Part shown: positions 5,409 to 26,899 of the stretch, piece after piece
Numbering within the stretch: the stretch's first letter is position 1
Layout: every line of letters begins with the position of its first letter
Assembly (NCBI GenBank): GCA_037441385.1
Contig: JBBISH010000033.1
Span: 1-51,405, forward strand
Length of the DNA: 51,405 bases
DNA from: Myxococcales bacterium
Lineage (GTDB): Bacteria > Myxococcota_A > UBA9042
Reading direction: 5' to 3'
Notes under the pieces: generated by a model
What the model saw: only the letters and a program-made list of their open reading frames with translations
Databases searched by the model: none
What the model was told of the DNA's origin: nothing
Position numbers and translations under genes: made by a program

Positions 5409-5450
5409 TCAGTATCCAGAATTGCTGAGCTTGTGTCGAACCTGCCAAGA

Positions 5451-7571
5451 TCAACAAACGCGGCGGCGCAGGCGGACCCACAAGCCCGCGGCGAGCAGCA
5501 AGCCCAGCCAAGCCGGATTGCCCTGCGTGGCCGCGGAACAGCTTCCGCCGGTGGTGGTCGGGGTGCTGGCTGCCGCTTTGCCGGTATCGTTGGTGCCGGT
5601 GTCGCTGGTGCCGTTGTCGAGGGAGCCAGCGTCGGACGTGGTGGCGGCCGAATCGGCGCTGCTTCCATCACTTCCGCTCGTGGCGTCCACGCCTTCGACC
5701 GGCGGCTGCGACGGCGGAACCTTGCCGTCGGCCCAACCCGGTTTGGGCGTGCAATTGAACGCCGGCTTGGGCCAACCGCCCAGTGTGGTGACCAGCGCAT
5801 TGTCGGGCGGAACCGGCCACTGCGAGACGGTCTTGAGCACCAGGTCTTTGGGGAGCGTGGGCTTGCCGGGCAGCGCACCCGCAATCGACTGCGACACCAC
5901 GCCGGCCTGGCTGGGATCGACGGCAATCGGCGCTCCCGTCTCGTCCAGCACTTCGATGCGCAGGGCGGTCGGCGCCGACTTGAAGCGCGGATCGATCGTG
6001 TTGTTGCCCAGTTGACCGCTGCCATTGGGCGGCGAACCTTGGAACACCCAGCTGCCCATGCCATCAATTGTCAGGCGAGTTTGCTGCGCGGGCAGCCAGC
6101 CGTTGCCACAAACCTCTGTAAACGTTGCGGTGTGCACGTTGCTCACGTCGGGCAGCGACGGATTGAAAGCAAACACCGGGTCGCGGTCCATCTCTTCGGG
6201 CGAGATGCGCATCAGCAGCCGCGTGAGCTTGGCCGAGGTCTTGGCGGTGGCGACCACGTCCTGCATCGGCTGGAAGAAGTTCTTGTCCAAGGCCGTGGCC
6301 AACGCCGTGCCGTCTACGGCCAGATCACCCGCTTCCTTTGCCGACATCTGCACATACTGACCAGAGGGCAAGTACGCCGAACAGGACGACCCGTACTTCC
6401 AATTGTCGCCGCAGCTGGCCAGGACCGCCCACGCCTCAGCCGCGCTCAGGCCTTTGGCCTTGCCAAACCCGGCCACGTCCTCGAGATCCCCCATGATCTC
6501 CATGCCCGAGTATTGGTTGTTGGCAGCGACCCAGTTGGCCAAGGTCTGGACGTTCGTCACGGACTTCAGCGTGTTCAGGACATCTGGCGGCACAAACAGC
6601 GGATCGATGATCGCGTTGGGGCTGCCCGAAAACTCCGTTGAAAACGCGTTGCCGCCGGCCTCGTCGATGGCCGACGACACCAACTGCGCGTAGTTGCTCG
6701 CGGCCGTGAACCAGTTGAGCCGCGCCCAATTCGGAAGCACATGCAGGGTGTTCTTGGGCACGGTCCGACCGGGCCCCAGCACCGACACAGACACCGTCAT
6801 CTCGCTGGCCGCGGCAATCGACGTCAGGCGCAACGGCACGCACGGCTCGGCATCCGTCATCTCGAGCGCGACCGGCCGCACCAAGTCCACGCCTTTACCG
6901 TTGCTCAGCTTGATGGCCACGAACACGTCGCCCTTCTTGATGTGCGACTCGAGCACGGGCTTGGCGGCAGCGGGAGTCTTGTAGCCGCGCGAATTCAGCC
7001 AATCGTACAGCGGGTTCGTCGTCGTCGCGGCCACCACCGTGTAGTCATAGGGGCCGGTCTGCCCCTGATCGAGCACCGTGACGCCACCGCCACCGCCGGT
7101 CATGGCATCCTGTGCCGCGGCGTCCGAGTAGCTGAGACCGGCATCCACCCCACCCGGGACAGGCACGTCCTTGCCTTCAACACAGCCATCGCGCGGATCG
7201 CGGCAATTCTCAAAGCCCGCGTTCGTGCTCTTGAAGCGCGGCGCCGTTTGCTGATCCAACCGGTCAAAAACAAAGCGGGTACCCACGCCGACCTTGGGCT
7301 GCTTGGGCAGTGGCAACACCCAGCCAAAATTCTCGGCCGCGCCCGTGTACTTGACCTCGACCCAGACGATGGCCTTCTTGGTGACGGGATCCTGAACGAA
7401 CAGCACCCGTTCCGCGTCTTGCACCACGTACTGCTGATCTTGCTGGCCAGGGGGCGGCGGCGGCGTCATCGAAAAACAGCCACCGCAGGCCAAGGCGGTC
7501 TGGGCCGCCAACAGCGAAACTCCGGTCGAAAGGGCAAGCAGACGGGGGACAAGGGCGCGCTGCGACAGCAT
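5451..7571 (-). CDS. DUF2330-domain secreted protein with a MYXO-CTERM-like C-terminal sorting signal
   Basis: Signal peptide then ACGGCF...AERVLF...YTGAAENFGWVLPLP...LDQQTAPRF, typical of DUF2330. The C-terminus is GGSCSA + hydrophobic helix + RLRRR. ATG at 7571; TTG at 7586 is an alternative start. Confidence 0.8.
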   Translation of the reverse strand: MLSQRALVPRLLALSTGVSLLAAQTALACGGCFSMTPPPPPGQQDQQYVVQDAERVLFVQDPVTKKAIVWVEVKYTGAAENFGWVLPLPKQPKVGVGTRFVFDRLDQQTAPRFKSTNAGFENCRDPRDGCVEGKDVPVPGGVDAGLSYSDAAAQDAMTGGGGGVTVLDQGQTGPYDYTVVAATTTNPLYDWLNSRGYKTPAAAKPVLESHIKKGDVFVAIKLSNGKGVDLVRPVALEMTDAEPCVPLRLTSIAAASEMTVSVSVLGPGRTVPKNTLHVLPNWARLNWFTAASNYAQLVSSAIDEAGGNAFSTEFSGSPNAIIDPLFVPPDVLNTLKSVTNVQTLANWVAANNQYSGMEIMGDLEDVAGFGKAKGLSAAEAWAVLASCGDNWKYGSSCSAYLPSGQYVQMSAKEAGDLAVDGTALATALDKNFFQPMQDVVATAKTSAKLTRLLMRISPEEMDRDPVFAFNPSLPDVSNVHTATFTEVCGNGWLPAQQTRLTIDGMGSWVFQGSPPNGSGQLGNNTIDPRFKSAPTALRIEVLDETGAPIAVDPSQAGVVSQSIAGALPGKPTLPKDLVLKTVSQWPVPPDNALVTTLGGWPKPAFNCTPKPGWADGKVPPSQPPVEGVDATSGSDGSSADSAATTSDAGSLDNGTSDTGTNDTGKAAASTPTTTGGSCSAATQGNPAWLGLLLAAGLWVRLRRRVC

Positions 7572-7601
7572 GATCGACTCCAGCAAAAGGCTGTCGTCAC
7601 C

Positions 7602-8447
7602 TTACTGCCGGCCGAGGACCTCTGCAACCGCGGCCAGCCAAGCCGCCGGCGCCTCCAGGTGCACATTGTGCCCAGCGCCAGGCACCACCCGGATCTGGGC
7701 ACTTGGCAAGGGCCGCAGCCAGCGCGGCGCCAAGGCACTATAGCCCGGATCTTCATGACCTGTGAGTACAAGTGCCGCCATGTCGGCGCGTACCACTTGG
7801 TCGTCGAACTGCGGCATGGTTCCCGTGCCCAGGGTCTGCAGGTGATCGACCAGGCCATCGGCGAGCTGACTCAGGCGAATTTCCCTTTGCGCAACCAGTC
7901 TTGAATCATCCCGAGCCAGACGACCCTGGCTGGCGAATAGCGCGAGGTTCTCCCAATTCGCGACGAATTCGGGCAGCCCGGCCGTCCAGAGCTCACTGGC
8001 ACGGGCGTCGTCTTGCCGCCGCCGGGACGCGCGCTCCGCTGGCGGCAGACCCGGATGCGCCGACTCCAGCACAAGCGCCGCCAAGCCAGTCCGGGCCGGC
8101 AACTGGCCCTGGAGCGCCCACCAGGCGGCGATTCGACCACCGGCCGAGTAGCCCAGCAGGGCAAACGGAACACGCAAGTGGGGAGCCAGGCTGCGATCCA
8201 AGAGCTCGGCCACCGCGCGCCACGGATCGCGCTCGCCGGCAAGACGCACCAGCGCAGACGCGCCGTGTCCCGGCAGATCCACCGCCAGCCAGCGCCGTTC
8301 AGGCACGCTGCCGCCATCGAGCAGGTCGCGCCAAGCCCGGCCGTCGGAAAGGAAACCATGCAAGAGGACCGCGGGCGGGGCATCGACCGGACCGGCCGCC
8401 GCGATCGCCAAGTGCCCCGCAGGCTGCGGCAACCGAGTCCACCGCAT
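7602..8447 (-). CDS. menH: SHCHC synthase (alpha/beta hydrolase)
   Basis: LLHGF, DLPGHG, nucleophile motif GYSAGG, RRRQDDARA and AGHNVHLE. Lies directly downstream of menD. ATG at 8447 chosen to avoid overlap. Confidence 0.85.
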   Translation of the reverse strand: MRWTRLPQPAGHLAIAAAGPVDAPPAVLLHGFLSDGRAWRDLLDGGSVPERRWLAVDLPGHGASALVRLAGERDPWRAVAELLDRSLAPHLRVPFALLGYSAGGRIAAWWALQGQLPARTGLAALVLESAHPGLPPAERASRRRQDDARASELWTAGLPEFVANWENLALFASQGRLARDDSRLVAQREIRLSQLADGLVDHLQTLGTGTMPQFDDQVVRADMAALVLTGHEDPGYSALAPRWLRPLPSAQIRVVPGAGHNVHLEAPAAWLAAVAEVLGRQ

Positions 8448-8472
8448 CAGACGAACCCCAACGGATTCCGCA

Positions 8473-10146
8473 TCATGCCTGTTCCAGGCCGGCAAGAAGC
8501 GCCTGCTGGGCCTGCCGCCGCGCGGCAAGCGACGCATGGCGGTCCACGGTCAAGATGGCCACCCGCGGACCAAGGTCGCTCTGCGCCAGCCACGTCACGG
8601 CTTGCTCCGGGTCGTCCCATCGCCGCGTCGGGACGCCAAAACCCTGAGCAATAGCCGCCAGATTCATACCGTGGGGCGCATAGAACAGCCGATCGTGGAC
8701 TGCCGCAGGCAAAGCTTGGGCCGCCGGCAGCAGGTCAAAGATGGTGCCACCACCGTTGTCGACCACCGCGATGCGCAGGTCCGCTTGCTGCTGGGCCACG
8801 AACTGCAGCGCACCGCAGTCGTGCAAGAACGCGCCGTCGCCACACCAGAGCCACGTGCGCGGGCCGGCCAGCGCGGTACCCAAGGCGGCCGCAAGGGTGC
8901 CGTCGATCCCGTTTGCACCGCGCGCGACGTGCACCGTGACCCCTGGCGGCACCTGCGGGCAAAAGGCGTCGGCGTCGCGAATCGCCATGGAATTGGCCAG
9001 GATCAAGCGCTCGCCTGGGACCAAGGCGGCAGACAGCGCCCGCACCAACTGCCGCTCGGGCGGAGCCGACAGCTGCGCCTCGCTCCCACCGACCCGACGA
9101 TCCAGCTCGCGGAATTGCTCTTTCCATGTGCTCACTTCTGTCTTGGGCGGCCGACCCCAATCGCGCAAGGCAAGCAGCGGCGACAGGGGCGTGGCCAAGC
9201 GGTTGCAGCCCAAGGGATCCGACTTGCGCCCCGGCTCCACGACCTCGAATGGAACGCCGGCGGCGGCTGCATCGTCCAGCAGCAACTGCAACCCCTTGGA
9301 CGCCGGCCACTCTCCCAACCGCACCAGCCGATCGGGCAGGGCACGCCGGCGCCAATTGGGGTCGCGCAGCCACAGGTCAAACCAGCGCAGTTGGCCCGTC
9401 GCCAGGTGACTCGGCCACTCGGCCAGCAGCAGGGCGGACTGTTCAAGTTGCTGTAGCAACAATGGATCTTGGGGTGGCAGCGGTCCAGCCACCACCAGTA
9501 CACGCTCGCCCAGCCCAGGCGGCGCGATCACCGGCCCGGCCGGCAGCACCGAAGCGGGCATGGCGACCGCCTGACGCGGCCACACCGGCCCAGGCGCCAA
9601 CGCCAGCGGTAGGTCCAACCCGACATTCACATGCAAGGGGCACGGGGCACGCGGCAGGTCGGCCACATGCTCGCGAATTTTCGCCGCGACGGCCGCAAAC
9701 TGGCTGGGCGCGTCGGTCGCACACGCCTCTAGATGCACCACTTGGGCGTAGCTCGCCAGTAGTTCTACCTGACGAACGGTCTGCGGCGCCCCCACACCCT
9801 GCAGCCGCAAAGGCCGGTCGCCACTGAGGAGTAGCAACGGGATCCCGCTCTCGCCGGCTTCGACCACAGCAGGCAGCCAGTTGGCCACCGCGCTGCCCGA
9901 AGTGCACACCAGCAGCGGACGGCGCCCCGTGCGCGCCAGTCCCAGGGCCACAAAGGCCGCGCTGCGCTCGTCGAGCACGACCGTCAGGCGCCAGTCGCCG
10001 CACGCCTCGCGCTCGGCCACCGCTTGCGCCAAGGGCGTGGACCGTGAACCCGGCGAAAGCACAACGTGATCAACGCCAAGGTTGGCCAGCAAGTGAACCA
10101 GCGCGCGCACGACCTGCGACTGCGCTGGCGCCGCAGCAGTCGTCAC
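8473..10146 (-). CDS. menD: SEPHCHC synthase (ThDP-dependent)
   Basis: SPGSRSTPL, DERSAAFVALG, CTSGSAVAN, RGANGIDG and GDGAFLHD...NGGGTIF. The GTG start at 10146 overlaps the menF stop (GTGA). Confidence 0.93.
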   Translation of the reverse strand: MTTAAAPAQSQVVRALVHLLANLGVDHVVLSPGSRSTPLAQAVAEREACGDWRLTVVLDERSAAFVALGLARTGRRPLLVCTSGSAVANWLPAVVEAGESGIPLLLLSGDRPLRLQGVGAPQTVRQVELLASYAQVVHLEACATDAPSQFAAVAAKIREHVADLPRAPCPLHVNVGLDLPLALAPGPVWPRQAVAMPASVLPAGPVIAPPGLGERVLVVAGPLPPQDPLLLQQLEQSALLLAEWPSHLATGQLRWFDLWLRDPNWRRRALPDRLVRLGEWPASKGLQLLLDDAAAAGVPFEVVEPGRKSDPLGCNRLATPLSPLLALRDWGRPPKTEVSTWKEQFRELDRRVGGSEAQLSAPPERQLVRALSAALVPGERLILANSMAIRDADAFCPQVPPGVTVHVARGANGIDGTLAAALGTALAGPRTWLWCGDGAFLHDCGALQFVAQQQADLRIAVVDNGGGTIFDLLPAAQALPAAVHDRLFYAPHGMNLAAIAQGFGVPTRRWDDPEQAVTWLAQSDLGPRVAILTVDRHASLAARRQAQQALLAGLEQA

Positions 10147-11552
10147 GGCGAGTCCGCCAGGCCAAACATGTGGCCGATCGCTTGATGCTTGTTGCGGATC
10201 TCTGCGACCTCGGCTGCCGCGGTGCTGCCGGCTACCAAACCCGCGCCGGCCCAACTGCGCCACTGCGGGTTTTGCCACTCGGCCCCACGGAGCAGGACCG
10301 CAAATTCGCCCTCGCCGTCGCCCGCCGCCGACACCACGCCGGCAAATCCGCCATACCAACCACGTGGTTCGGGCTCCAATTCGGCCAGCGCTGCTACCGC
10401 CGCGGCCCGAGGCAAACCCAAAAGCGCAGGCGTGGGATGCAGGTGCAGCGCGGCCACCAGCGCATCCAAGCCGGGCGGACGGTGGCCACTCAGCGGCGTC
10501 GCCAAGTGGAAAAGAGGCCCGGCTCCGCGGAGTTGCCGTTCCCCCACCTGAACCTCGATGCCCATGTCCTGCAGCGCCCCGTCCAAGTAGTCGACGACGA
10601 GCTGATGCTCGCGCGCCAAGTGATCGGCCACGGGCTCCCCGGGCGAGAGCGTGCCGGCCAGAGCCAAGGTCTCGAGGTGTTCACCGTGCGTGCGAACCAA
10701 CAGTTCTGGCGAGGCACACAGGACGCCCTGCGGGCGACCTCCTAGCAAAGCCGCAGAAAAACTGCAGATCCACGCGCCGCGCTGCTGGGAAAACAGACGA
10801 CTCTCTACCACCTGCGGCTGCAACGGCGCGTCCCACAGCCGCGGCGCGGCCACCACCAGCTTGTCCAGACCCGGCCGCTGCAGGCGCTCTAGGGCGGCCG
10901 CCACCGGAGCCGCACTTGGGGCAGGTTCGGTCGGCTGCAGCAGGGGCGGCGCTGCGTGCGGGGCAGGTCGCAAGCCGCCCAGCAGACGGCGAATCTCGCC
11001 AAGGAAATCCTCTACTTCACTGCGCCTGTCGAGCACGACCGCCACCGCCAACGGCTCGCCGGCAGTCAACCACAGCCGCGGCAACCAGGCCCGCAGCGGC
11101 ACGAACAACTGCCCGGTAGCGTCGCGCTGGGGGAAGCCAGCCACCGCCACGACGTCGCAGTGGACCTGCAGGCCGCTCAACCAGGCATCCACACTGGCCA
11201 ATTGCCCCGCGTCGGGCCGGAGCCGCTCGCCCTGGACATCCAGGTTCAGGCGACTCACTGGGCACAGGTCGGCGCAGCCCAAAGCCCAGCGTTCGCGCCC
11301 ATTTGGAGCACGCCAGGCAAAGCGCCACTCACTGTCCTGTACCGTAACCTGGCCATCATCAAACGGATTCTGTAGATGAGTGCGGCAAACCACGCGCTGC
11401 TCGGGCCGGCGCAGGATGCCCAGCTGCAAGCGAAAGTGCGCGAGCAGGCTGGTCAAATCCGGCCACGATCCATCGCGCGCTGGCACGGCACCAGGCGTTG
11501 GTCCGCTGACGGCCAAGACGGGATCGCGCCCTTCTGCGGTCGCCACGCTCAT
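10143..11552 (-). CDS. menF: Isochorismate synthase (chorismate-binding MST family)
   Basis: DKLVVA, ASPELL, ALAGT, EH, LHPTPA, RGWYGG and AGAGLV...E..E...K. Located between menG and menD with 4-bp overlaps. Confidence 0.85.
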   Translation of the reverse strand: MSVATAEGRDPVLAVSGPTPGAVPARDGSWPDLTSLLAHFRLQLGILRRPEQRVVCRTHLQNPFDDGQVTVQDSEWRFAWRAPNGRERWALGCADLCPVSRLNLDVQGERLRPDAGQLASVDAWLSGLQVHCDVVAVAGFPQRDATGQLFVPLRAWLPRLWLTAGEPLAVAVVLDRRSEVEDFLGEIRRLLGGLRPAPHAAPPLLQPTEPAPSAAPVAAALERLQRPGLDKLVVAAPRLWDAPLQPQVVESRLFSQQRGAWICSFSAALLGGRPQGVLCASPELLVRTHGEHLETLALAGTLSPGEPVADHLAREHQLVVDYLDGALQDMGIEVQVGERQLRGAGPLFHLATPLSGHRPPGLDALVAALHLHPTPALLGLPRAAAVAALAELEPEPRGWYGGFAGVVSAAGDGEGEFAVLLRGAEWQNPQWRSWAGAGLVAGSTAAAEVAEIRNKHQAIGHMFGLADSP

Positions 11553-12316
11553 GCTGGGCCCGCGATCGGAAGGCGAGGCAGGGGAGATGCCACGTGAATA
11601 CAGGACGCTCCAGCAAGAAGCGTGATCAACTCCTGCATCTTCAGTCCCGAACTATCAATAAGCTTTGCAAAATCTTCTGGACTGGGGAACGCCGTCGTCG
11701 ACTGCTGCAAGTAGCGGTACTCGCGCGGCGCGCCGGACAGCAACCCACCCAGCAGCGGCACCAGCACGCGCATGTGGAGCTTGGCGCCCAGACCCAGCAG
11801 GCCCCGCGGCTCGCTCGTCTCCAAAATCGCCACGCGGGCACCAGGCTTGAGCACCCGCGCCATCTCGGCCAGGGCCCGCGGCCGGTCGACCACGTTGCGA
11901 ATGCCATAGCCCATGGTGATGCCGTCGAAGCTCTGATCAGCAAAGGGCAATTGGCAGGCATCACCCTGCACCAGCTCTACGCGGTCCGCAAGGCCGCGCG
12001 CGGCGACTTTGTCGCGCCCCACCGCCAACATGCCGGCCGACGGATCCAAGCCAACTACGGTGCACTGCGGGATGCGGTCGGCGACCATCAGCGCCAAATC
12101 CCCAGTCCCAGTCGCCAGATCCAGGATACGGGCGCCCGGTTTTGCCTGCAACGCGTCCACGGTGCGCCGCCGCCAACGTTGGTCGATGCCAAACGTCATC
12201 AAGCGATTCATCAGGTCGTAGCGCGCGGCGATGCCATCGAACATGGCGCCGCTGCCGCCGGCTACACCGGTCGCGGCCAGGGGTTGCCCAACCGGGCTGT
12301 TGGCTGAGTGGGTCAC
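11549..12316 (-). CDS. menG: Demethylmenaquinone methyltransferase (UbiE/MenG)
   Basis: MFDGIAARYDLMNRLMTFGIDQRWRR, SAM motif LDLATGTGD, YGIRNV, RVLKPG and YRYL. Confidence 0.93.
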   Translation of the reverse strand: MTHSANSPVGQPLAATGVAGGSGAMFDGIAARYDLMNRLMTFGIDQRWRRRTVDALQAKPGARILDLATGTGDLALMVADRIPQCTVVGLDPSAGMLAVGRDKVAARGLADRVELVQGDACQLPFADQSFDGITMGYGIRNVVDRPRALAEMARVLKPGARVAILETSEPRGLLGLGAKLHMRVLVPLLGGLLSGAPREYRYLQQSTTAFPSPEDFAKLIDSSGLKMQELITLLAGASCIHVASPLPRLPIAGPA

Positions 12317-12393
12317 GGGGTCCGCCTTGTCCTGTCGAAGCGATGGGATCGCACACCGCTAGTTGGCGCGCCAAGAAAACCTTGAGCCCACGG

Positions 12394-14577
12394 TCATGCC
12401 GCGCCGCCGCGCTTGCCGTGGCCCACGTCGGCCTTGCGAGCGTGCAAGCGCATGTGCCCCTGCTGGATGCCTTCGCCGGCCAACGCCCGCAGTGCCGCCA
12501 AATTCGAGGCCAACCCCACTGCCGCCATCACCACGGCCAGCTCGCGGGCGCTGCCGGTCTGGATGATCTCCATCGCCGTGCGCACGCCCGGATGCGCCTG
12601 GGTCGATCCACCGACAGTGCCAATCGCCAAGGGCAGTTCCATGCTGCCGTGCAGGCCCGCCTCCGTGCGCCGCCAGGTCGCCAGCGGCCGGTAGTCCGCG
12701 CCCAAGCCAGCAAACGAGTGCGCCCCGGCCTCGATGGCGCGCCAGTCCTGTCCCAGCGCCACCGCGACCGCGTCGATGCCGTTCAAGATGCCTTTGTTGT
12801 GCGTCGAAGCGCGGAAGGGATCCAGCTCGGCAAAGCGACTGGCGCGGGCGATGCCGTCGGCCAACCGCTCGCCCCCCAAGAAATCACTGCCCACATCGCA
12901 CTCAACGTGGCAGATGCGCCGCAGCGGCGTGTTCGACAGGATGCGTAGGCCAATGTCGCCACCGACCCACTCGCGCATCAGCGGCGCCACGTGCTCGGCT
13001 ACCGTATCGACCACGTTGGCGCCCATGGCGTCGCCCACGTCGACATACAGGTGCACCACCATGATGCCGATTTCGGTGTCGAGCACCCGCGCGTCCAGGT
13101 CCAAGCAACCGCCGCCGCGGGCCACCATGCGCGGAATGGCCGCGTTGGCCACCGCGATGATCTCGTCGCGCCGCCGCTCGATGGTGGCCACGGCCTCTTC
13201 CACCTGGGGTACGTGGTCGAACTGCACCTGCGCGGTCATCACGCTGGCGGTGGCATCGCCGCGGAAGCCGCCCGTAGCCCGCACCATGCGCGCCGCGTTG
13301 CTGGCCGCAGCGACCACGCTTGGCTCTTCCACCACCATCGGCACGATGTAGTCGCGGCCATTGACACGGAAATTGAGGCCCAGCGCCATCGGCAGCGAAA
13401 ACGTCGACACTACGTTCTCGCTCATCTTGTCGGCGATGGCGATGTCCAAGGTGCCGCTCCGCAGGTACTTCTGCGACTCGGGCGAGAGGCCCAGTTGCAT
13501 GGCCACCTGCCGGCACCGCTCGGCCACCGACTTCTTGTAGAACTCGGGATAACGACTGGTGTACGGCGGCAACTCCTGCGGCCGCGGCACCGGCACGTCC
13601 AGGCCCAGTTGGTGCCCCAGATCGGCCAACTGCTCGGGCAATAGCGCTTGCGGACCGTCGCTTTTGGCGCGCGCCGGATCCGGGTGCACTTCGACCAGCA
13701 CCACATCGGCCCCCGCGGCCTTGCCCGCCAGCGCCAGCGGCACCACCAGATCGCGCCGCCCGGCCGCGTGCGACGGATCGACCGCCACGGGCATGTGCAG
13801 CGCATGATGCAGCAGGGCCACGGCACCCAAATCCAGCGTGTTGCGCGTCTCGGCGCCGATGCCCGCCACGCCGCGCTCGCAGAACATCACCCACGGGCAG
13901 CCGTGCACTAGCAAGTGCTCGCCCGCGCAAAGCCATTCCTCTACCGACGCGCCGCGGCCGCGCTTGAGCAACACGACCTTGCCCGTGCGCCCTACAGCGC
14001 CCAGCAGCGCGAAATTCTGCATGTTGCGCGAGCCGATTTGGATCACATCGGCAAAGGCGGCCACGGCCTCGACGTGCATCTCGCTCATCGCCTCGGTCAC
14101 CACGCCCAAACGCTGCTCGGCCGCGGCGTCGGCCAGCCACTGCAGCGCGGGTGTCCCGGCTCCGGCAAAACTGTAAGGCGACGTGCGAGGTTTGTAGGCG
14201 CCACCCCGCAGCAGTCGCGCGCCAACGGACGCCACCAGCTTGGCGGTCTCGCGAATTTGCTGCTGGGATTCCACGGCACAAGGGCCTGCAATTAGAACCG
14301 TTTCGCGGCCCAGCTCGACGAGGCCACCGGCGCGCGTGTGCAGCGACCACGTGCGCGGCATCGCGTCGACCCGCGGGTGCGCCGACTTGGGCTCGCGAAT
14401 CGCCGCCACACCGGGAATCGAACGAATGAGCGCGTGGGGCACCCGCGACGAGTGCGCCTCGACCTCGAGCAGCCCTGGTCCTTCCTCGCCGGTCAGCGGC
14501 CGCGTCCACAGGCCAAGCCCTTGCAGCGCGGCGGCGACGGCAGGCGTGTCGGCATCAGGGGCAAGTACGATGATCAT
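12394..14577 (-). CDS. Fusion protein: type I-beta DAHP synthase (N-terminal, ~14577-13600) plus class II HMG-CoA reductase (C-terminal, ~13560-12394)
   Basis: Single uninterrupted ORF. DAHPS motifs: IAGPCAVES, RGGAYKPRTSPYSF, IGSRNMQNF, LKRG, CERG, DPSH, EVH, SDGPQ. HMGR motifs: SENVV, EEPSVVAAAS, GDAMGAN, THNKGILNG, GQDWRAIEAGAH, GTVGGST, GIQQGHMRLH. Confidence 0.92.
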   Translation of the reverse strand: MIIVLAPDADTPAVAAALQGLGLWTRPLTGEEGPGLLEVEAHSSRVPHALIRSIPGVAAIREPKSAHPRVDAMPRTWSLHTRAGGLVELGRETVLIAGPCAVESQQQIRETAKLVASVGARLLRGGAYKPRTSPYSFAGAGTPALQWLADAAAEQRLGVVTEAMSEMHVEAVAAFADVIQIGSRNMQNFALLGAVGRTGKVVLLKRGRGASVEEWLCAGEHLLVHGCPWVMFCERGVAGIGAETRNTLDLGAVALLHHALHMPVAVDPSHAAGRRDLVVPLALAGKAAGADVVLVEVHPDPARAKSDGPQALLPEQLADLGHQLGLDVPVPRPQELPPYTSRYPEFYKKSVAERCRQVAMQLGLSPESQKYLRSGTLDIAIADKMSENVVSTFSLPMALGLNFRVNGRDYIVPMVVEEPSVVAAASNAARMVRATGGFRGDATASVMTAQVQFDHVPQVEEAVATIERRRDEIIAVANAAIPRMVARGGGCLDLDARVLDTEIGIMVVHLYVDVGDAMGANVVDTVAEHVAPLMREWVGGDIGLRILSNTPLRRICHVECDVGSDFLGGERLADGIARASRFAELDPFRASTHNKGILNGIDAVAVALGQDWRAIEAGAHSFAGLGADYRPLATWRRTEAGLHGSMELPLAIGTVGGSTQAHPGVRTAMEIIQTGSARELAVVMAAVGLASNLAALRALAGEGIQQGHMRLHARKADVGHGKRGGAA

Positions 14578-14664
14578 GCAACCTCGGAACTCGCGCGGCA
14601 CCGCGTGCCGCTGGACCAGTGTTGGATGCGCGCCACAGGCCCGACCACCCGGGCCCGCGCCATC

Positions 14665-15807
14665 CTACGCGTGTCGCGTGGCCAGCGCATCTGCAATCGC
14701 GCGCAGGGCTTCGCGCTGGGCCGACTCGGGCAGTTGGTTCAAGGCGTCTTGCGCCTGCTGCAGCCGGGCGGCAGCCACGGCCCTTGCGGTGGCCAGGGCT
14801 CCGCTCTGCCGCACGCCCGCCACGATGGCCGCCACGGTGGGGCCTTCGGGCTGTTGGCCGGCCAGGGTGGCACTGCGCACAGCGGCTACGGCTGGCCGCA
14901 ACTCGGGATGTTGCCGCAAGGTTAGGGCCAAGGGCAGGGTGATCTTGCCCTCTTTCAGGTCGGCCAAAAGCGACTTGCCGGTCGCGGCTGGCGCGCCTTC
15001 AAAGTCCAGCACATCGTCGACCAGCTGGAAGGCCATGCCCAATTCGCTGCCAAACTGCACCAGCGCCGCCGTGGTGTCCACCGAACAGCCGCCTGCCACC
15101 GCGCCGGCCCGCAGAGCAAACCGGAACAGCGAGGCAGTCTTGCCGTCGATGACGCGGTAGTAGCCGTCGGTATCTTCCGCCAGGTTCTTCGCCCGCTCGC
15201 CCTGATCCACCTCAGCCAGAATCAGGGCTTCCACCGTGTTCAACGCCTCGGTCACCAGCGGCGCGTGCCCAGTGGCCACGATGCGACGCAGCGCTTCGAC
15301 CAACAGCCAATCGCCTGCAAAAATTGAAACTTCGTTGCCGTGCATCGCCCGCGCCGTGGCTTGGCCGCGCCGCGTCTCGGCCAGGTCCACCACGTCGTCG
15401 TGCAAGAGCGTCGCCGCGTGCACCAGCTCCACGGCCACCGCCAGGTTGCGCGCGTTGGCATGGGCGGCGGCGTCTTGGCGCGGCCCAAAACGACTGGCCA
15501 ACAGAGTACACAGCGGCCGCAACCGCTTGCCGCCCGCTGCTAGAATGTGCCAGCCCGCCCGCTGCGCCAGGTTTGCGCCGGTGGTCTGCAGCAACGCCTG
15601 CTCTACGCCCAGCAAGTCGCCCGACAGCCAGGCCTGCAATTCGCCTAGCTTTGCCGCCAGGTCGCCGTGCTCGTGCTCGCTGGCCTGGGCCGCCAAGCGC
15701 GGCAGGGGCGTGCTGTGGGGTCGGGTCGCCGTGCCATCGGCGTGCGGCGTGGTCTCGCAGCTCGCATCGTAGGGGGCGGTCACGTTGTTCAACGCTTCTG
15801 CGGGCAT
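14665..15807 (-). CDS. Long-chain trans-polyprenyl diphosphate synthase (IspB/HepT-like)
   Basis: GGKRLRP, first Asp-rich motif LLHDDVVD...RRG with a small residue (Ala) at -5, GKTA, and second motif FQLVDDVLD. Start placed at ATG 15807; 15831 is also possible. Confidence 0.92.
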   Translation of the reverse strand: MPAEALNNVTAPYDASCETTPHADGTATRPHSTPLPRLAAQASEHEHGDLAAKLGELQAWLSGDLLGVEQALLQTTGANLAQRAGWHILAAGGKRLRPLCTLLASRFGPRQDAAAHANARNLAVAVELVHAATLLHDDVVDLAETRRGQATARAMHGNEVSIFAGDWLLVEALRRIVATGHAPLVTEALNTVEALILAEVDQGERAKNLAEDTDGYYRVIDGKTASLFRFALRAGAVAGGCSVDTTAALVQFGSELGMAFQLVDDVLDFEGAPAATGKSLLADLKEGKITLPLALTLRQHPELRPAVAAVRSATLAGQQPEGPTVAAIVAGVRQSGALATARAVAAARLQQAQDALNQLPESAQREALRAIADALATRHA

Positions 15808-15854
15808 GGATGGGCCTCGCTGGGTTCGCATGGGCAAAGAGGGGAACAGAGAGG

Positions 15855-15886
15855 GTGGCGACGAAATTTCACTCGCCACTGAAATT
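15855..15886. promoter_or_regulatory. Two overlapping inverted repeats upstream of the quinone operon (candidate operator)
   Basis: AATTTCA-N8-TGAAATT (15865-15886) overlaps GTGGCGA-N11-TCGCCAC (15855-15879). Confidence 0.3.
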
Positions 15887-15947
15887 ATCGACGGCGACGG
15901 CGGCCGCGTCAAGCACGAGCCGGCAAATCCCTTTGCGATGGCGGCAA

Positions 15948-16808
15948 CTATCGCCGCGCCGCCGCAAAAACCTTTTGCAGGGTCAACGGGATCGGGCCGG
16001 CATAGCTCGGTCCGCCCAAGAGCTCGTCGGCCAATCCGTCGACCGCCACCCGTTCGGCCTCGCTCCAACCGCGGCAATCATCCCGCACCTGCAGAAGACT
16101 GTTGCGCGCCTGATGGGCAACATTCATCAGCCGACGCGCGGTGTTGGCCATGCGCCCCACCTGATAGGACAGGGTCGGGTTCTTGCGCCACGCCAGTTCT
16201 TTCACCGCGTCGGCCAGCTCGCTTTGCAAGGTGCCCAGGGTGACGAACAGATCTTCGATGCCATTCGCCGGCGGCTCGGGCGTAGCGACGACCGCCCGCA
16301 GTTGCTCGGCCACCATCTCGGTCGCCAGCCGCTCTTTGCGTTGAAAGATACGCACATACATGAGCAACGACACCACGCCGTTGACCGCCACCGCCGCTGT
16401 CCCACCCACGGCCACCGAGCTGAGCCGCACCAGCAACGTGTCCACGGGCGTCCCGCGCGGGATGAGGAGCAGGTAGATCGCCGTAAAGGCCGCCACCTGA
16501 TAGCCAGCGCCAAAACCCAGCGCGATCGTGAGCCAAACGGCAAGCCCCACGCCCAGCGACAGTTCCAGCGCAAAGGGCAGGCCCATCCACGCGAACAGCG
16601 CCGCCACCGCGCCGCCAATCAGCGAGCCCAGCACCTGATCGCGCGCCCGCCTCAGGCCCGACAGGATGATCGGAGAGGTGCAGATGACGGCCACGAAAGC
16701 CGCCGAAACGGCGTCGGGGTTGTGGAGGGCCGTCACGCCTGCCCAGCCCAGCACTGCCGACGCGGCGGCCTTGCCGGCAAGGAACCGGTGATCTACGAGC
16801 GAATTCAT
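15948..16808 (-). CDS. Aromatic acid exporter/FUSC-like membrane protein
   Basis: About five N-terminal hydrophobic helices with GKAAAS...SAAFVAVIC..P....GLRRARDQVLGSLIGG, followed by a helical soluble C-terminus. Confidence 0.65.
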   Translation of the reverse strand: MNSLVDHRFLAGKAAASAVLGWAGVTALHNPDAVSAAFVAVICTSPIILSGLRRARDQVLGSLIGGAVAALFAWMGLPFALELSLGVGLAVWLTIALGFGAGYQVAAFTAIYLLLIPRGTPVDTLLVRLSSVAVGGTAAVAVNGVVSLLMYVRIFQRKERLATEMVAEQLRAVVATPEPPANGIEDLFVTLGTLQSELADAVKELAWRKNPTLSYQVGRMANTARRLMNVAHQARNSLLQVRDDCRGWSEAERVAVDGLADELLGGPSYAGPIPLTLQKVFAAARR

Positions 16809-16823
16809 GGATATTTCCCCGAG

Positions 16824-17609
16824 CTACTGCAGCAGCTGGGTATTGTTGGCAAGGTAGGTAATGAGGTAGTCCCAGACGAAGATGCCGATGGCCGAGGTCA
16901 CGACGCAGTTGTTGACCGCCCGACCCACGCCCGCCGCGCCGCCCGAGACGCTGAGGCCATAGTAGCAGGAAACCACGCTGATCGAGGCGCCAAAGCTGGT
17001 CCCCTTGATCAGGCCGATGATGTACTCGTCGAGCAGGTGCGACTCAAAAACCCCTTGGAAGAACACGCGATAATCGACCTCTAGGATGAATTGCGAGGTC
17101 AGCGCGCCGCCCACCAGCGCGAACAGGTCGCCCAGCGCCGTCAGCAGCAGGAGCATCAGCACCATCGACACAAAGCGCGGCACCACCAGGTGGTGGATCG
17201 GATCGATGGCCAGGGCGCGCAAGGCGTCGATCTGCTCGGTCACCTTCATGGTGCCCAGTTCGGCCGTGTTGTTGGCGCCCACGCGACCCGAGAACATCAG
17301 GCCAATCAGCACCGGGCCGATCTCGGCGAGCACGGCGTAGCCCGCGCCCCAGCCCAACAGGCCGGTCGCTCCCGTCTGCTTCACGTAGCCGCCGCTTTGG
17401 ATCACCATGATCGCGCCCGTGAAAATCGCGGTCATGATCACGATCGGGTAGCTCTTGACGCCGACCTTGTACAGGTTCAGCCAGGTCTCGTCGCGGTCGA
17501 AGCGCGGCGGGATCATCGCACGGAAAATCCGCAGCATCTGCAAAGTGATGCCGCCAACCGTCTCCGAGACGCCCAAGACGCTGCTGCCGATGGCCCGCAA
17601 GGGATTCAC
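16824..17609 (-). CDS. mlaE: MlaE-family ABC permease
   Basis: EIGPVLIGLMFSGRVGANNTAELGTMKVTEQIDALRALAIDP...VVPR and GGAAGVGRAV. GTG start with AGGAG upstream. Confidence 0.92.
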   Translation of the reverse strand: MNPLRAIGSSVLGVSETVGGITLQMLRIFRAMIPPRFDRDETWLNLYKVGVKSYPIVIMTAIFTGAIMVIQSGGYVKQTGATGLLGWGAGYAVLAEIGPVLIGLMFSGRVGANNTAELGTMKVTEQIDALRALAIDPIHHLVVPRFVSMVLMLLLLTALGDLFALVGGALTSQFILEVDYRVFFQGVFESHLLDEYIIGLIKGTSFGASISVVSCYYGLSVSGGAAGVGRAVNNCVVTSAIGIFVWDYLITYLANNTQLLQ

Positions 17610-26023: not shown

Positions 26024-26899
26024 ATGACGTTGTCCGAAGGCCCGCAGGTGCTCGACAGGCTGCACGACGGCGTGTTGACGCTGACCCTGAATCGCCCCGA
26101 CAAGCTCAACGCCTTGGACCAGCCGCTGGTCGACGCGCTGCACTCGGCGCTCGCCTACTACGAGCCGCTGGTCGACATCGTGCGCGCGGTGGTGATCTGC
26201 GGTGCCGGCGGTCGGGCTTTTGCCGCCGGGGCCGACATCGCCACCTTGCGCAATCGCAACGCGGGCGAGGCCTTGCTGGCCATCAACGCCACCCTGTTCG
26301 ATCGCTTGGCGCGCTTTCCGGCGCCCACCATCGCGGCCGTGACCGGCTTTGCCTTAGGGGGCGGTTGCGAGTTGGCGCTGGCATGCGACCTGCGCATCGC
26401 TGGCGAATCCGCCCAGTTCGGTCAACCCGAGACGGGTCTGGGCATCATCCCGGCCGCCGGTGCGACGTCGCGGCTGCCCCTGTTGGTCGGGATGGGCAGA
26501 GCGCGCGAGCTGATTTTCACCGGTCGGCTGGTCGGCGCGGACGAAGCGGCGGCCATGGGCTTGGTCAACGCCGTGGTCCCAGACAGCGAAGTAGTGGCCG
26601 CTGCAGTGGAAATGGCGGCACAGATCGCCAAGAACGACGGTCTGGCCACCCGCCTCACCAAGCAGGCGCTGCAGCTCGGCGAAGGCAACCAGGAGCACCA
26701 GCGGCGATTCGCCAATATCGCCCAGGGTTTGTGCTTTGACAGCCCAGCCAAAATCGCGCGCATGGATGCGTTCTTGGCGCGCAAGGCCGCCCGCCGCAAT
26801 AGCGCTGCCCACACGGTGCCAAGTCCGATTCCGCCGGGAGCCATGCCGGCAGCGGATGGGTCCGGCCCGGGTCTTGCCGGCAGCCCAAGTGGGAGCTAG
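26024..26899 (+). CDS. Enoyl-CoA hydratase/isomerase family protein
   Basis: TLNRPDKLNAL, AFAAGADI, GFALGGGCELALACDLRIA and QPETGLGIIP; both catalytic Glu residues present. Confidence 0.9.
   Translation: MTLSEGPQVLDRLHDGVLTLTLNRPDKLNALDQPLVDALHSALAYYEPLVDIVRAVVICGAGGRAFAAGADIATLRNRNAGEALLAINATLFDRLARFPAPTIAAVTGFALGGGCELALACDLRIAGESAQFGQPETGLGIIPAAGATSRLPLLVGMGRARELIFTGRLVGADEAAAMGLVNAVVPDSEVVAAAVEMAAQIAKNDGLATRLTKQALQLGEGNQEHQRRFANIAQGLCFDSPAKIARMDAFLARKAARRNSAAHTVPSPIPPGAMPAADGSGPGLAGSPSGS

Follow-up and report, generated by a model that had tools for sequence, protein, structure and literature searches.

Introduction

Among described proteins, MvaE of Enterococcus faecalis (entries 7M1Z and 7M3H, which matched the HMGR half of the protein studied here) comes closest as a natural protein in which a class II HMG-CoA reductase (HMGR) is fused to a further pathway enzyme. 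It joins acetoacetyl-CoA thiolase and HMGR, which in their common pathway are the first and the third enzyme and flank HMG-CoA synthase. DAHP synthases (DAHPS) of type I-beta are also known with additional domains, and these are N-terminal, regulatory, and from the same pathway: the Thermotoga maritima enzyme carries a ferredoxin-like (FL) domain (1RZM) and others are joined to chorismate mutase (3NVT, 5J6F). We analyzed a gene, located in a window of 51,405 nucleotides (the whole stretch of DNA under study), that brings the two kinds of enzyme together. Its HMGR half has the fold and catalytic residues of MvaE, whereas its DAHPS half has the barrel of 1RZM, 3NVT, and 5J6F and keeps an FL-type N-terminal domain of the 1RZM type, though diverged. 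However, the partner of HMGR is here the entry enzyme of the shikimate pathway, the Pfam scan gave no thiolase domain in the 727-residue protein, unlike in MvaE, and what is added to the DAHPS is a full enzyme of another pathway, at the C-terminus.

Menaquinone consists of an aromatic ring made via the shikimate pathway and of a prenyl tail made via isoprenoid synthesis. How cells balance the supply of ring and tail has, to our knowledge, been little studied. From sequence comparisons, we consider it likely that the gene is a real bifunctional gene of four parts, that it arose by a single merger of neighbors in a cassette, and that its two halves work as independent modules.

Architecture of the fused gene

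The fused gene is one uninterrupted ORF on the minus strand (window 12394-14577) encoding 727 residues. A longer ORF (12394..14601, minus strand) would encode 735 residues from a GTG, and the ATG at 14577 is the likely start, since a GAGG lies a few bases upstream and most of the aligned fused homologues (24 of 30) start there, the exceptions being P0007, P0008, P0010, P0011, P0013, and P0029, which have N-terminal extensions. The protein begins with a diverged FL regulatory domain of DAHPS (residues 1-80; 14338..14577, minus strand), supported by PRK08673 and a profile-profile match, which is followed by the TIM barrel of a type I-beta DAHPS (residues 81-320; 13618..14337, minus strand), supported by PF00793, TIGR01361, and the alignment to 1ZCO. 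A linker of about 19 residues (321-339; 13561..13617, minus strand), recognized by its identity and length across 30 fused proteins, leads to a class II HMGR (residues 340-715; 12433..13560, minus strand; PF00368, TIGR00532, and alignment to 1QAX). The last part is a variable tail with the TGA stop (residues 716-727; 12394..12432, minus strand), which has 7-23 residues and 19% mean identity in the 30 fused proteins. Profiles, motifs, and alignments to solved enzymes thus bear out the sequence-only reading of this ORF, which had described about 727 residues with a complete DAHPS, a complete class II HMGR, and all their metal-ligand and catalytic motifs; the short Pro-rich linker that it placed between them is indeed rich in Pro and Ala.

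In the DAHPS half, the Pfam scan identified DAHP_synth_1 (PF00793) at residues 91-322 (E 1.2e-63, 215 bits, cut-off 25.5). The NCBIfam models TIGR01361 (312 bits, cut-off 267.75) and PRK08673, which spans residues 1-323 (336.8 bits, cut-off 335), also match, and the KDO8P synthase models are far under their cut-off (93.9 vs 314). The motifs GPC, DPSH, EVH, and SDG correspond to C100, H270, E296, and D307, and align without gaps to C31, H201, E227, and D238 of the Pyrococcus furiosus DAHPS 1ZCO, whose residue numbers were counted by hand on the alignment. We take these residues to be the metal ligands, and the motifs KPRTSPY, LLKRG, and CERG, which are also present, to bind the substrates. In the same alignment, ERGIR, the usual form of a further motif, has another residue in place of its Arg. 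The N-terminal extension of about 90 residues, already pointed out from the sequence alone, gave no Pfam match to PF18152 at E<=1. Yet, its comparison by hhalign with the PF18152-positive N-termini of trp-linked paralogues gave a probability of 95.5% (E 1.6e-8, 70 columns), which identifies it, at the level of profiles, as a diverged member of the ferredoxin-like regulatory domains.

In the HMGR half, HMG-CoA_red (PF00368) is found at residues 351-713 (E 2.5e-94, 316.8 bits) and the best NCBIfam model is TIGR00532 (395.1 bits, cut-off 259.95), whereas TIGR00533, the model of class I, is at 38.5 (cut-off 441.8). This half is of the soluble type, without a membrane domain. It aligns to residues 4-398 of the Pseudomonas mevalonii HMGR 1QAX, and its motifs EEPS, HNKG, QDWR, and GHM provide E418, K595, D611, and H708, identical to E83, K267, D283, and H381 of that enzyme. 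The domain has exactly 376 residues in all 30 fused proteins, with a mean identity of 79%.

Genomic context and link to menaquinone

The gene had been read as part of a menaquinone operon, and its same-strand neighbors agree with this. The first gene of the cassette encodes a long-chain polyprenyl-diphosphate synthase for the quinone tail (14665..16077, minus strand; PF00348 at residues 172-394, E 1.7e-55), for which the best NCBIfam matches are hepta- and octaprenyl synthases, all under cut-off, and whose true start is probably downstream of 16077. On the other side of the fused gene are a MenG/UbiE demethylmenaquinone methyltransferase (11549..12316, minus strand; NF001244, 231.4 with cut-off 216; TIGR01934, 230.3 with cut-off 158), a MenF-like isochorismate synthase (10143..11552, minus strand; PF00425, E 8.2e-40), MenD, the SEPHCHC synthase (8473..10359, minus strand; TIGR00173, 287.9 with cut-off 244.2, residues 83-497), which probably starts downstream of 10359, and a MenH-like alpha/beta hydrolase (7602..8537, minus strand; PF00561). 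MenF and MenH are under the cut-offs of their best models (TIGR00543, 149.8 vs 224.75, and TIGR03695, 179.5 vs 208.55, respectively). Scans of positions 5000-17000 gave weak signals, with three promoter-like sites where 1.0 were expected and four terminator-like sites where 9.3 were expected; a promoter-like site at 15912-15884 (minus strand), also weak, lies ahead of the polyprenyl synthase domain.

Other genes of the pathway lie elsewhere in the source genome (G000), with MenB on C7 (390.7 bits, cut-off 342.7) and MenA on C78 (190.9 bits, cut-off 102.15). MenB (TIGR01929) and MenA (TIGR00751) are over cut-off in six of eight fused genomes, the source genome among them, and the futalosine-route family PF02621 was found in none of six genomes. 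An enoyl-CoA hydratase at 26024-26896 was rejected as MenB, as it has generic crotonase matches only. Prephenate dehydratase was found in none of 18 genomes of the family and TrpA is absent from 8 of 11 fused genomes, which suggests that chorismate in the fused lineage mainly feeds menaquinone.

PF00368 matches nothing but the fused gene in the source genome, which hence has no other HMGR. The lower mevalonate pathway is encoded on contig C31, with type 2 IDI and MVD over cut-off and MK-like and PMK-like proteins under cut-off. DXS and IspH were not found in the source genome, nor was IspH in any of 20 genomes. By its gene content, the source genome is mevalonate-only, and the sole HMGR of such an organism would have to supply all its isoprenoids. 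HMG-CoA synthase was over cut-off in none of 20 genomes; a weak match on contig C122 turned out to be FabH-like and was discarded.

The link of the fused gene to menaquinone is thus well supported by gene content and gene order, but it has exceptions. Two fused genomes carry the gene outside a men context. In G023, a complete men operon has an unfused DAHPS of its own, and the fused gene is located elsewhere. In G022 (95% complete), we found no MenD, MenB, MenA, or MenG above cut-off, nor a futalosine gene, and the fusion is kept. Hence, the fusion is not strictly tied to menaquinone. The role proposed from the sequence alone, the joint supply of ring and tail precursors for menaquinone, therefore stands in part: the operon, the conserved cassette, and the men-type clade of the DAHPS (see below) are in its favor, but the HMGR is not specific to menaquinone in the source genome. 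Since it would serve all isoprenoids there, tying it 1:1 to DAHPS cannot adjust its amount to the menaquinone demand alone.

Distribution and origin of the fusion

The same single ORF was identified in 14 of 41 related genomes, in six genera of one family, and among the 120 matches listed there are at least 29 full-length fused protein clusters (68-90% identity). All fused members are from uncultured metagenome-assembled genomes (MAGs). Two-domain loci numbered 28 among the 36 examined, half of them single ORFs and the other 14 two adjacent ORFs. The latter (58-64% identical) had been regarded as a second fused lineage, which we reject, and the AU test for two origins (p 0.019 against one clade) is void because it had counted them as fused. 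Twelve of these 14 loci have the two ORFs in different frames, L087 passes from frame 1 to 2, and in L073 one stop separates ORFs of the same frame.

The fused gene belongs to a conserved cassette in which polyprenyl-diphosphate synthase, DAHPS, HMGR, and MenG follow each other, with MenF, MenD and/or MenH behind them in some genomes. It is found in this cassette in 12 of the 14 fused genomes. In 10 of 10 more distant relatives the cassette (there with UbiE as its last gene) has DAHPS and HMGR adjacent but separate. The polyprenyl-diphosphate synthase is upstream of DAHPS in all these 10 adjacent-gene genomes and in 10 of the 14 fused ones. Nine of the 10 adjacent-gene genomes have a second HMGR elsewhere, so the HMGR of their cassette is a dedicated extra copy. 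In the tree of DAHPS, the men-type sequences form a clade (100/100, stem 1.36) apart from the trp-linked paralogues, and the fused proteins form a single clade in this tree (100/100) and in that of HMGR (95). The separate genes of L073 share one frame, with the same 75-nt spacing and a single TGA in the linker, i.e. they are one stop codon away from fusion. These patterns suggest that the fusion is the derived state of the cassette and that it arose once, by the merger of two adjacent genes.

Could the fusion be a selectively neutral accident, in which the stop codon between two packed, co-transcribed genes was lost, the change was fixed by drift, and it persists only because the cell needs both activities and a clean new split is unlikely? 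The adjacent-gene state is widespread and one of its members is a stop codon away from fusion, the linker evolves almost freely, and G022 and G023 have retained the fused gene although it left the operon. Since separate adjacent genes suffice in the relatives, the fusion itself may add little. However, it was kept across six genera while synonymous sites came near saturation (dS 0.8-1.4), and we found no split form within that clade (30 of 30 proteins, 14 of 14 genomes). We regard neutrality as unlikely, although a weak benefit would look the same in these data. A one-off stop loss, which the sequence-only reading had allowed for, is refuted by the recurrence of the ORF in those 14 of 41 genomes and by a dN/dS of about 0.07 in both halves (relative to G005, 0.07 in the FL domain, 0.06 in the barrel, and 0.07 in HMGR).

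Independent or coupled halves

As independent catalytic modules, the two halves would each keep their own reaction. The DAHPS half would open the shikimate pathway, of which the naphthoquinone ring would be the main remaining sink in this lineage, and the HMGR half would convert HMG-CoA to mevalonate for the prenyl tail and for every other isoprenoid of the source genome. The fusion would then ensure the 1:1 co-synthesis and the co-localization of both entry enzymes from one promoter. The linker is the least conserved part of the protein (31% mean pairwise identity in the 30 fused proteins), with a dN/dS of 0.28 relative to G005 and of about 0.8-1.8 relative to more distant relatives, which fits a passive tether.

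Type I-beta DAHPS enzymes are tetramers. HMGR, in the accessible part of PMC12292504, requires dimerization for activity, so the fused protein would have to be an oligomer to have both activities. The sequence-only reading had also suggested an allosteric coupling. In that case the halves would share an interface or an oligomer, the ligands of one half (HMG-CoA, mevalonate, NADPH, or whatever binds to the FL domain) would tune the other, and the protein would be a single valve for ring and tail. We find this unlikely. The dimers and tetramers would indeed be mechanically linked, and the length of the linker is kept within 15-23 residues, but its sequence is unconstrained, and in 10 of 10 cassette genomes each of the two enzymes is a polypeptide of its own. 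The FL domain is under strong purifying selection (dN/dS 0.07) even though the family is without the Phe/Tyr branch to which such domains usually respond, and may therefore sense something else. Nevertheless, the changes typical of the DAHPS half (GSRNMQN, and an ERGxR motif without its Arg) are older than the fusion, the Arg loss being common to unfused men-type DAHPS, and we saw no fusion-specific change. That HMGR was independently fused to an isochorismate synthase of the ring pathway (P0136, P0274) is in line with coupling. A complex prediction between the two halves scored 0.10 (mark 0.32), which speaks neither for nor against binding.

A bolder version would mechanically couple DAHPS tetramers and HMGR dimers within one particle, with an FL domain that, left without Phe or Tyr to sense, responds to a metabolite of the quinone pathway or an isoprenoid metabolite, the whole acting as a single allosteric valve for ring and tail precursors of menaquinone, and with Polyangiales-like bacteria organizing isoprenoid metabolism around HMGR copies dedicated to given end products. 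We regard it as doubtful. If true, HMGR copies should be clustered or fused with the enzyme that defines the product, be it DAHPS or an isochorismate, polyprenyl, terpene, or squalene synthase.

Activity of the two halves and integrity of the junction

Under the preferred reading of two independent modules, both halves must be active. The fused gene is the sole PF00793 match, without any PF01474, in five of five near-complete relatives, and 20 of 20 genomes encode a chorismate synthase. From this status as the only DAHPS of relatives that keep chorismate synthase, we infer DAHP synthase activity. It is very improbable that one half is a non-catalytic remnant with a regulatory or scaffolding role. 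The narrow margin of PRK08673 over its cut-off and the replaced Arg of ERGIR could be read in this way, but that loss is shared with unfused men-type DAHPS, and none of 15 key residues varies among 30 fused homologues, nor do the metal ligands and substrate motifs of DAHPS or the catalytic Glu, Lys, Asp, and His of HMGR. Furthermore, it provides mevalonate-only genomes with their one HMGR.

The HMGR half could also be degradative, i.e. oxidize mevalonate to HMG-CoA with NAD+. Its best NCBIfam model, TIGR00532, has 'degradative' in its title, public records name the fused protein only "degradative HMG-CoA reductase", and HMG-CoA synthase was not found above cut-off. Yet, a genome with a complete lower mevalonate pathway, no MEP pathway found, and a single HMGR requires this enzyme to be reductive. 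The NAD-dependent 'degradative' subtype is recognized by an Asp at the cofactor position, present in 1QAX, 6DIO, and 6P7K, where the fused proteins have an invariant Ile481 (30 of 30), with Arg483 two residues on. In the accessible part of PMC12292504, the HMGRs of P. mevalonii and Burkholderia cenocepacia (1QAX, 6P7K) are named NADH-dependent, the Asp (D146 in P. mevalonii, D154 in Ruegeria) contacts the adenine-ribose hydroxyls, and its replacement in the Ruegeria enzyme raised the NADPH activity 53.7-fold; we equated D146 with D154 by offset arithmetic from E83/E91. Because the Asp that marks NADH-specific enzymes is absent, the fused HMGR is probably biosynthetic in direction and uses NADPH or both cofactors. 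A degradative role is highly unlikely, and the current label not only hides half of the protein but probably also misstates its direction and cofactor.

Finally, we give practically no credence to an assembly or frameshift artefact joining two genes, since the same single ORF recurs in 14 of 41 independent assemblies and in at least 29 fused protein clusters among the matches listed, GC content is even over the junction, and the linker is bridged free of indels by contigs of two studies (run X1, which may be the source, has contigs over 13517-14700 with 0 differences, a contig of the independent study X4, about 90% identical, covers 13500-13647 with 0 gaps, and the contig comparison reported no indels in 12300-14700).

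Comparison with known systems

The sequence-only reading knew of no described fusion of this kind, which neither literature searches nor databases contradict. We found no description of a DAHPS-HMGR fusion in the literature, and 1.84 billion representative proteins contain one DAHPS-HMGR representative (at 50% identity) besides the cluster of the query itself, so the architecture is not one catalogued as common. The ESM Atlas gave no usable match. A protein of 1195 residues, P0216, aligns over the junction (query residues 186-718), and Pfam finds only a partial HMGR domain in it.

The history suggested by these data is that of a dedicated copy of the committing enzyme of each pathway being placed in a quinone operon and then welded into one protein. 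As such, the fusion provides a natural and testable case of co-ordination across pathways and a ready-made design for the engineering of vitamin K2 or other prenylated aromatics. In the manner of a 'Rosetta stone', it also hints at joint work of DAHPS and HMGR in related bacteria that encode them separately.

A second DAHPS inside the operon of a chorismate-derived product has precedents in PhzC (accessible parts of PMC8772962 and PMC6435475) and in BagF/FevY (NF041229), and the men-type and trp-type paralogues found here parallel the distinction between dedicated and amino-acid-linked isozymes. However, PhzC is of type II and serves a secondary metabolite, whereas the DAHPS studied here is of type I-beta, is associated with a respiratory quinone, is fused to HMGR, and is the only DAHPS in most relatives. 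Class II HMGR is itself found in other natural fusions, with GHMP (mevalonate) kinase and with squalene/phytoene, polyprenyl, terpene, and isochorismate synthases. These are alike in that HMGR behaves as a fusion-prone module attached to users of the output of its pathway, and differ from the present case in the partner and in the order of the domains. The fusion with isochorismate synthase (P0136, P0274) likewise ties HMGR to the ring pathway of menaquinone.

The fused gene and its junction

The fused gene is real and conserved, and both of its halves are intact and under constraint. On the minus strand, the open reading frame (12394..14601) encodes 735 aa when read from a GTG and 727 aa when read from an ATG at 14577. 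The latter is the likely start on sequence grounds, since a GAGG lies a few bases 5' of it and, of 30 aligned fused homologues, 24 start at the same aligned position; the other 6 carry N-terminal extensions. In Pfam, residues 91-322 match DAHP_synth_1 and residues 351-713 match HMG-CoA_red, and the NCBIfam models TIGR01361, PRK08673 (residues 1-323), and TIGR00532 all exceed their cut-offs. The DAHP synthase (DAHPS) half aligns without gaps to the P. furiosus enzyme (1ZCO), C100/H270/E296/D307 matching C31/H201/E227/D238, and the HMG-CoA reductase (HMGR) half aligns to residues 4-398 of the P. mevalonii enzyme (1QAX), E418/K595/D611/H708 matching E83/K267/D283/H381 (numbering counted by eye on the alignments). 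The functions of these residues are well established for the two enzymes. The single ORF proposed by the sequence-only reading is therefore present with both domains and their catalytic positions, and the protein is predicted to have both activities.

That reading had asked whether a stop or an indel lay at the junction. Contigs of the run X1, possibly the source of the window DNA, cover 13517-14700 with 0 differences, and a contig of the independent study X4 (around 90% identical) crosses the linker at 13500-13647 without a gap. No indel was reported in 12300-14700 among the aligned contigs, and the GC content is even over the junction.

PF18152, the Pfam ferredoxin-like DAHPS domain, matched neither residues 1-90 of the fused protein nor the same region of two unfused DAHPS of the menaquinone-operon type (men-type). 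It matches the N-terminus of the other DAHPS of the window's genome at 59 bits. By profile comparison the N-terminal extension is a diverged ferredoxin-like (FL) domain, since the N-termini of 15 men-type and 8 tryptophan-operon (trp-type) DAHPS match each other (probability 95.5%, E 1.6e-8, 70 columns).

Conservation and distribution

Among the 120 matches listed by a word-indexed protein search, 29 proteins (P0002-P0030, 719-766 aa) have both Pfam domains at 98-100% query coverage and 68-90% identity, 3 more are short proteins with both domains, and 88 have only HMGR. At the genome level, 13 of 41 related genomes (the window's own included) have an uninterrupted match to residues 1-717 or more, and in a 14th, G007, the match is broken by two contig ends. 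The single ORF in 14 genomes, together with the 29 full-length proteins, shows that the architecture is no one-off. The window's genus accounts for 9 of the 14, out of its 11 genomes in the set (those lacking the fusion are 61% and 69% complete), and the remaining five come one apiece from five other genera in that family. No such match was found in the family's 11 other genomes or in 16 genomes from other families. Nor is the architecture catalogued as common: searched exhaustively with HMMER, 1.84 billion representatives of 50%-identity clusters gave one full-length match, P0014 (737 aa, 71% identity), and the remaining matches listed covered one half only.

In the alignment of 30 fused proteins, the 15 residues checked are all invariant. 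Mean pairwise identity is 56% in the FL domain, 71% in the DAHPS barrel, 31% in the linker (15-23 residues), and 79% in HMGR, which has 376 residues in all 30. In the comparison with the closest relative, G005 (dS 0.57-0.93), the FL domain and HMGR each have a dN/dS of 0.07, the barrel has 0.06, and the linker 0.28. With four more distant relatives, where synonymous sites are near saturation, the domains give 0.14-0.34 and the linker around 1 or higher where computable.

Gene context and origin

The fused gene sits within, and derives from, a menaquinone cassette. In line with the menaquinone operon named by the sequence-only reading, the window carries on the minus strand a polyprenyl-diphosphate synthase, the fused gene, MenG/UbiE, MenF-like, MenD, and MenH-like genes, which overlap or are separated by 0-87 nt. 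Just 3' of these genes are those for a 711-aa DUF2330 protein (5451-7586, minus strand) and for a protein of 1392 aa that has CTDC repeats of the Dictyostelium type (PF00526; 1230-5408, minus strand); similar CTDC-repeat proteins occur near HMGR or fusion loci in G022 and G024. Ten of the 14 fused genomes have the polyprenyl synthase upstream and UbiE downstream of the fusion. In G007, UbiE and MenF follow it and the contig ends on the upstream side, G012 has a UbiE fragment beside it at a contig end, and in G022 and G023 its neighbours are unrelated.

A scan of species-representative genomes kept 80 loci, and the reading frame was checked in 36 (L062-L097): 28 have both halves and 8 have HMGR alone. 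That all 28 are fusions was ruled out by this check, as a single ORF is present in only 14 of them, with a DAHPS half that is 65-99% identical, and the other 14 (48-64% identical) consist of two adjacent genes. Of these pairs, 12 lie in different frames, that of L087 in frames 1 and 2, and that of L073 in one shared frame interrupted by a TGA. In the latter (nt ~380-480), the 75-nt spacing is that of the fusions, and the linker has a single TGA with a GTG right behind it (…GAPRRG*AVAGHSSRISGFY…). L073 represents either the state directly before fusion, a later split of the fused gene, or an error in the sequence.

The order polyprenyl synthase, DAHPS, HMGR, UbiE is found in all 10 adjacent-gene genomes (G041-G050), followed by MenF, MenD and/or MenH in 4 of them within the stretch fetched. 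At least one additional HMGR lies elsewhere in 9 of the 10. Six such HMGRs were inspected: five stand alone in their ORFs, and the sixth is attached to a terpene synthase domain. The latter arrangement is seen in G043, where Terpene_syn_C_2 and HMGR share one 731-aa open frame (L154:37-2229, contig C25) besides a cassette HMGR and a standalone one. Loci in G029, G017, and G023 (contig C6) have the polyprenyl synthase, DAHPS, and UbiE without HMGR. In the related genus g5, polyprenyl synthase and DAHPS adjoin MenF, MenD, and MenH, and a standalone HMGR lies directly 5' of UbiE on a different contig. The 300 nt preceding each of eight standalone HMGRs contained no DAHPS remnant.

Gene trees are in agreement with this. 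The DAHPS tree (careful inference, 38 rows) separates a clade of 24 men-type rows (100/100, stem 1.36) from the trp-linked paralogues, and within it the 12 fused rows group as a single clade (100/100). In the HMGR tree (quick inference, 80 rows), the 30 fused rows also group as a single clade (support 95), sister (93) to four standalone HMGRs, g5 among them, within a 73-row clade (100) that also contains cassette HMGRs. Rows labelled 'FUSd' or 'FUS_L0xx' in the HMGR tree and in one further tree are adjacent-gene forms, so the AU test made with the latter tree is silent on the number of fusion events. The simplest reading is that an HMGR entered a men operon already owning a DAHPS, that the two genes would then have merged in one event, and that the fused gene may have relocated afterwards in two lineages.

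Isoprenoid supply and cofactor

The fused gene is the sole HMGR of the window's genome and the sole DAHPS of most relatives. In the window's genome, contig C31 encodes a type 2 IDI and a diphosphomevalonate decarboxylase above cut-off, with mevalonate-kinase-like and phosphomevalonate-kinase-like genes both below it; DXS and IspH were not found there, nor IspH in any of 20 related genomes. Since it is the only HMGR, with these mevalonate genes and no DXS or IspH found, the HMGR half must supply all isoprenoids. No bacterial-type HMG-CoA synthase exceeded the cut-off in these 20 genomes, although all are mevalonate-dependent, and in the window's genome the archaeal-type model stayed below cut-off, its best match being FabH-like. 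By analogy with the LiuC-type hydratase of leucine catabolism discussed for Myxococcus (PMC5389471), that route may be one possible source of HMG-CoA.

Public records name the protein 'hydroxymethylglutaryl-CoA reductase, degradative'. At the position of its Ile481, the structures 1QAX, 6DIO, and 6P7K have Asp; Ile481 and Arg483, two residues further, are invariant in all 30 fused proteins. The enzymes of 1QAX and 6P7K, from P. mevalonii and B. cenocepacia, are described as strictly NADH-dependent, and Asp154 of the Ruegeria enzyme, equated with D146 of P. mevalonii by arithmetic offset (catalytic E91 vs E83), as touching the adenine-ribose hydroxyls, D154K raising NADPH activity 53.7-fold (PMC12292504). 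From these residues we infer that the fused HMGR is not the NADH-specific type of its label, and predict that it works reductively with NADPH.

Chorismate sinks

The window's genome has a second, standalone FL-domain DAHPS (L001, C27:33952-35762; PRK08673 452.7 bits) immediately adjoining trpA. Five near-complete relatives have no PF00793 match besides the fused gene, and no type II DAHPS. TrpA exceeds the cut-off in 9 of 9 unfused vs 3 of 11 fused genomes, and adjoins the second DAHPS wherever present. Because this pairing recurs in every TrpA-positive relative, the family is judged from gene order to have one DAHPS paralogue tied to trp and one to men. Chorismate synthase is found in 20 of 20 genomes and prephenate dehydratase (PF00800) in 1, and in none of the 18 of the window's family (controls detected in 14 of 14). 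MenB and MenA exceed the cut-off in 6 of 8 fused genomes, the window's included, and the futalosine family was found in none of six genomes. Given the trp-linked paralogue, these losses, and the retained MenB and MenA, each chorismate sink of the lineage seems to be served by its own DAHPS. In most fused genomes menaquinone is the one remaining sink that could be identified, and the lineage is apparently unable to make Phe/Tyr, and often Trp, with the shikimate pathway retained.

In G022 (95% complete), MenD, MenB, MenA, and MenG above cut-off and futalosine genes were not found, and the fused gene and chorismate synthase are retained; either the men genes are missing from its assembly or the fusion serves something else too. 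KDO-8-phosphate synthase was not found in the window's genome (G000) or in G003, G005, G010, G018, and G022, where all PF00793 matches are DAHP synthases. An outer membrane whose lipopolysaccharide, if any, lacks Kdo would be consistent with this; an LPS-free outer membrane is reported for Sorangium.

Comparison with known fusions

Pfam scanning of 18 long matches found HMGR joined to GHMP kinase, thiolase, squalene/phytoene synthase, polyprenyl synthase, aromatic prenyltransferase, FMN-dependent dehydrogenase, and a chorismate-binding enzyme, and in none of the 18 to DAHPS. In P0136 (866 aa) and P0274 (862 aa), a class II HMGR (TIGR00532, 329.7 bits) precedes an isochorismate synthase that exceeds its cut-off (TIGR00543, 249.5 bits). 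At 52% identity they are two members of this fusion, an independent tie of HMGR to the menaquinone ring pathway. In G021, HMGR and polyprenyl synthase share one 831-aa ORF (L033:7120-9615, by Pfam). Six other relatives (G015, G016, G017, G020, G029, G034) have similarly long open frames, of 785-873 aa, at their HMGR matches, which suggests that this fusion is common in genera without the DAHPS fusion.

Type I-beta DAHP synthases are tetramers. This and the description of the HMGR active site at a dimer interface (PMC12292504) lead us to predict an oligomer carrying both activities, the benefit of fusion probably being co-synthesis and co-localisation. Allosteric coupling, as the sequence-only reading proposed, or a physical coupling of the halves, is hypothetical and less likely. 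The absence of a described DAHPS-HMGR fusion, as the sequence-only reading had it, agrees with our full-text literature search by titles and abstract openings outside subscription journals, which brought up metabolic-engineering, plant-transcriptome, and unrelated papers and no natural example. There are precedents for bifunctional fusions and for DAHPS dedicated to one pathway; the cross-pathway pairing of DAHPS with HMGR is undescribed, and bears chiefly on how cells balance ring vs tail supply of their respiratory quinones.
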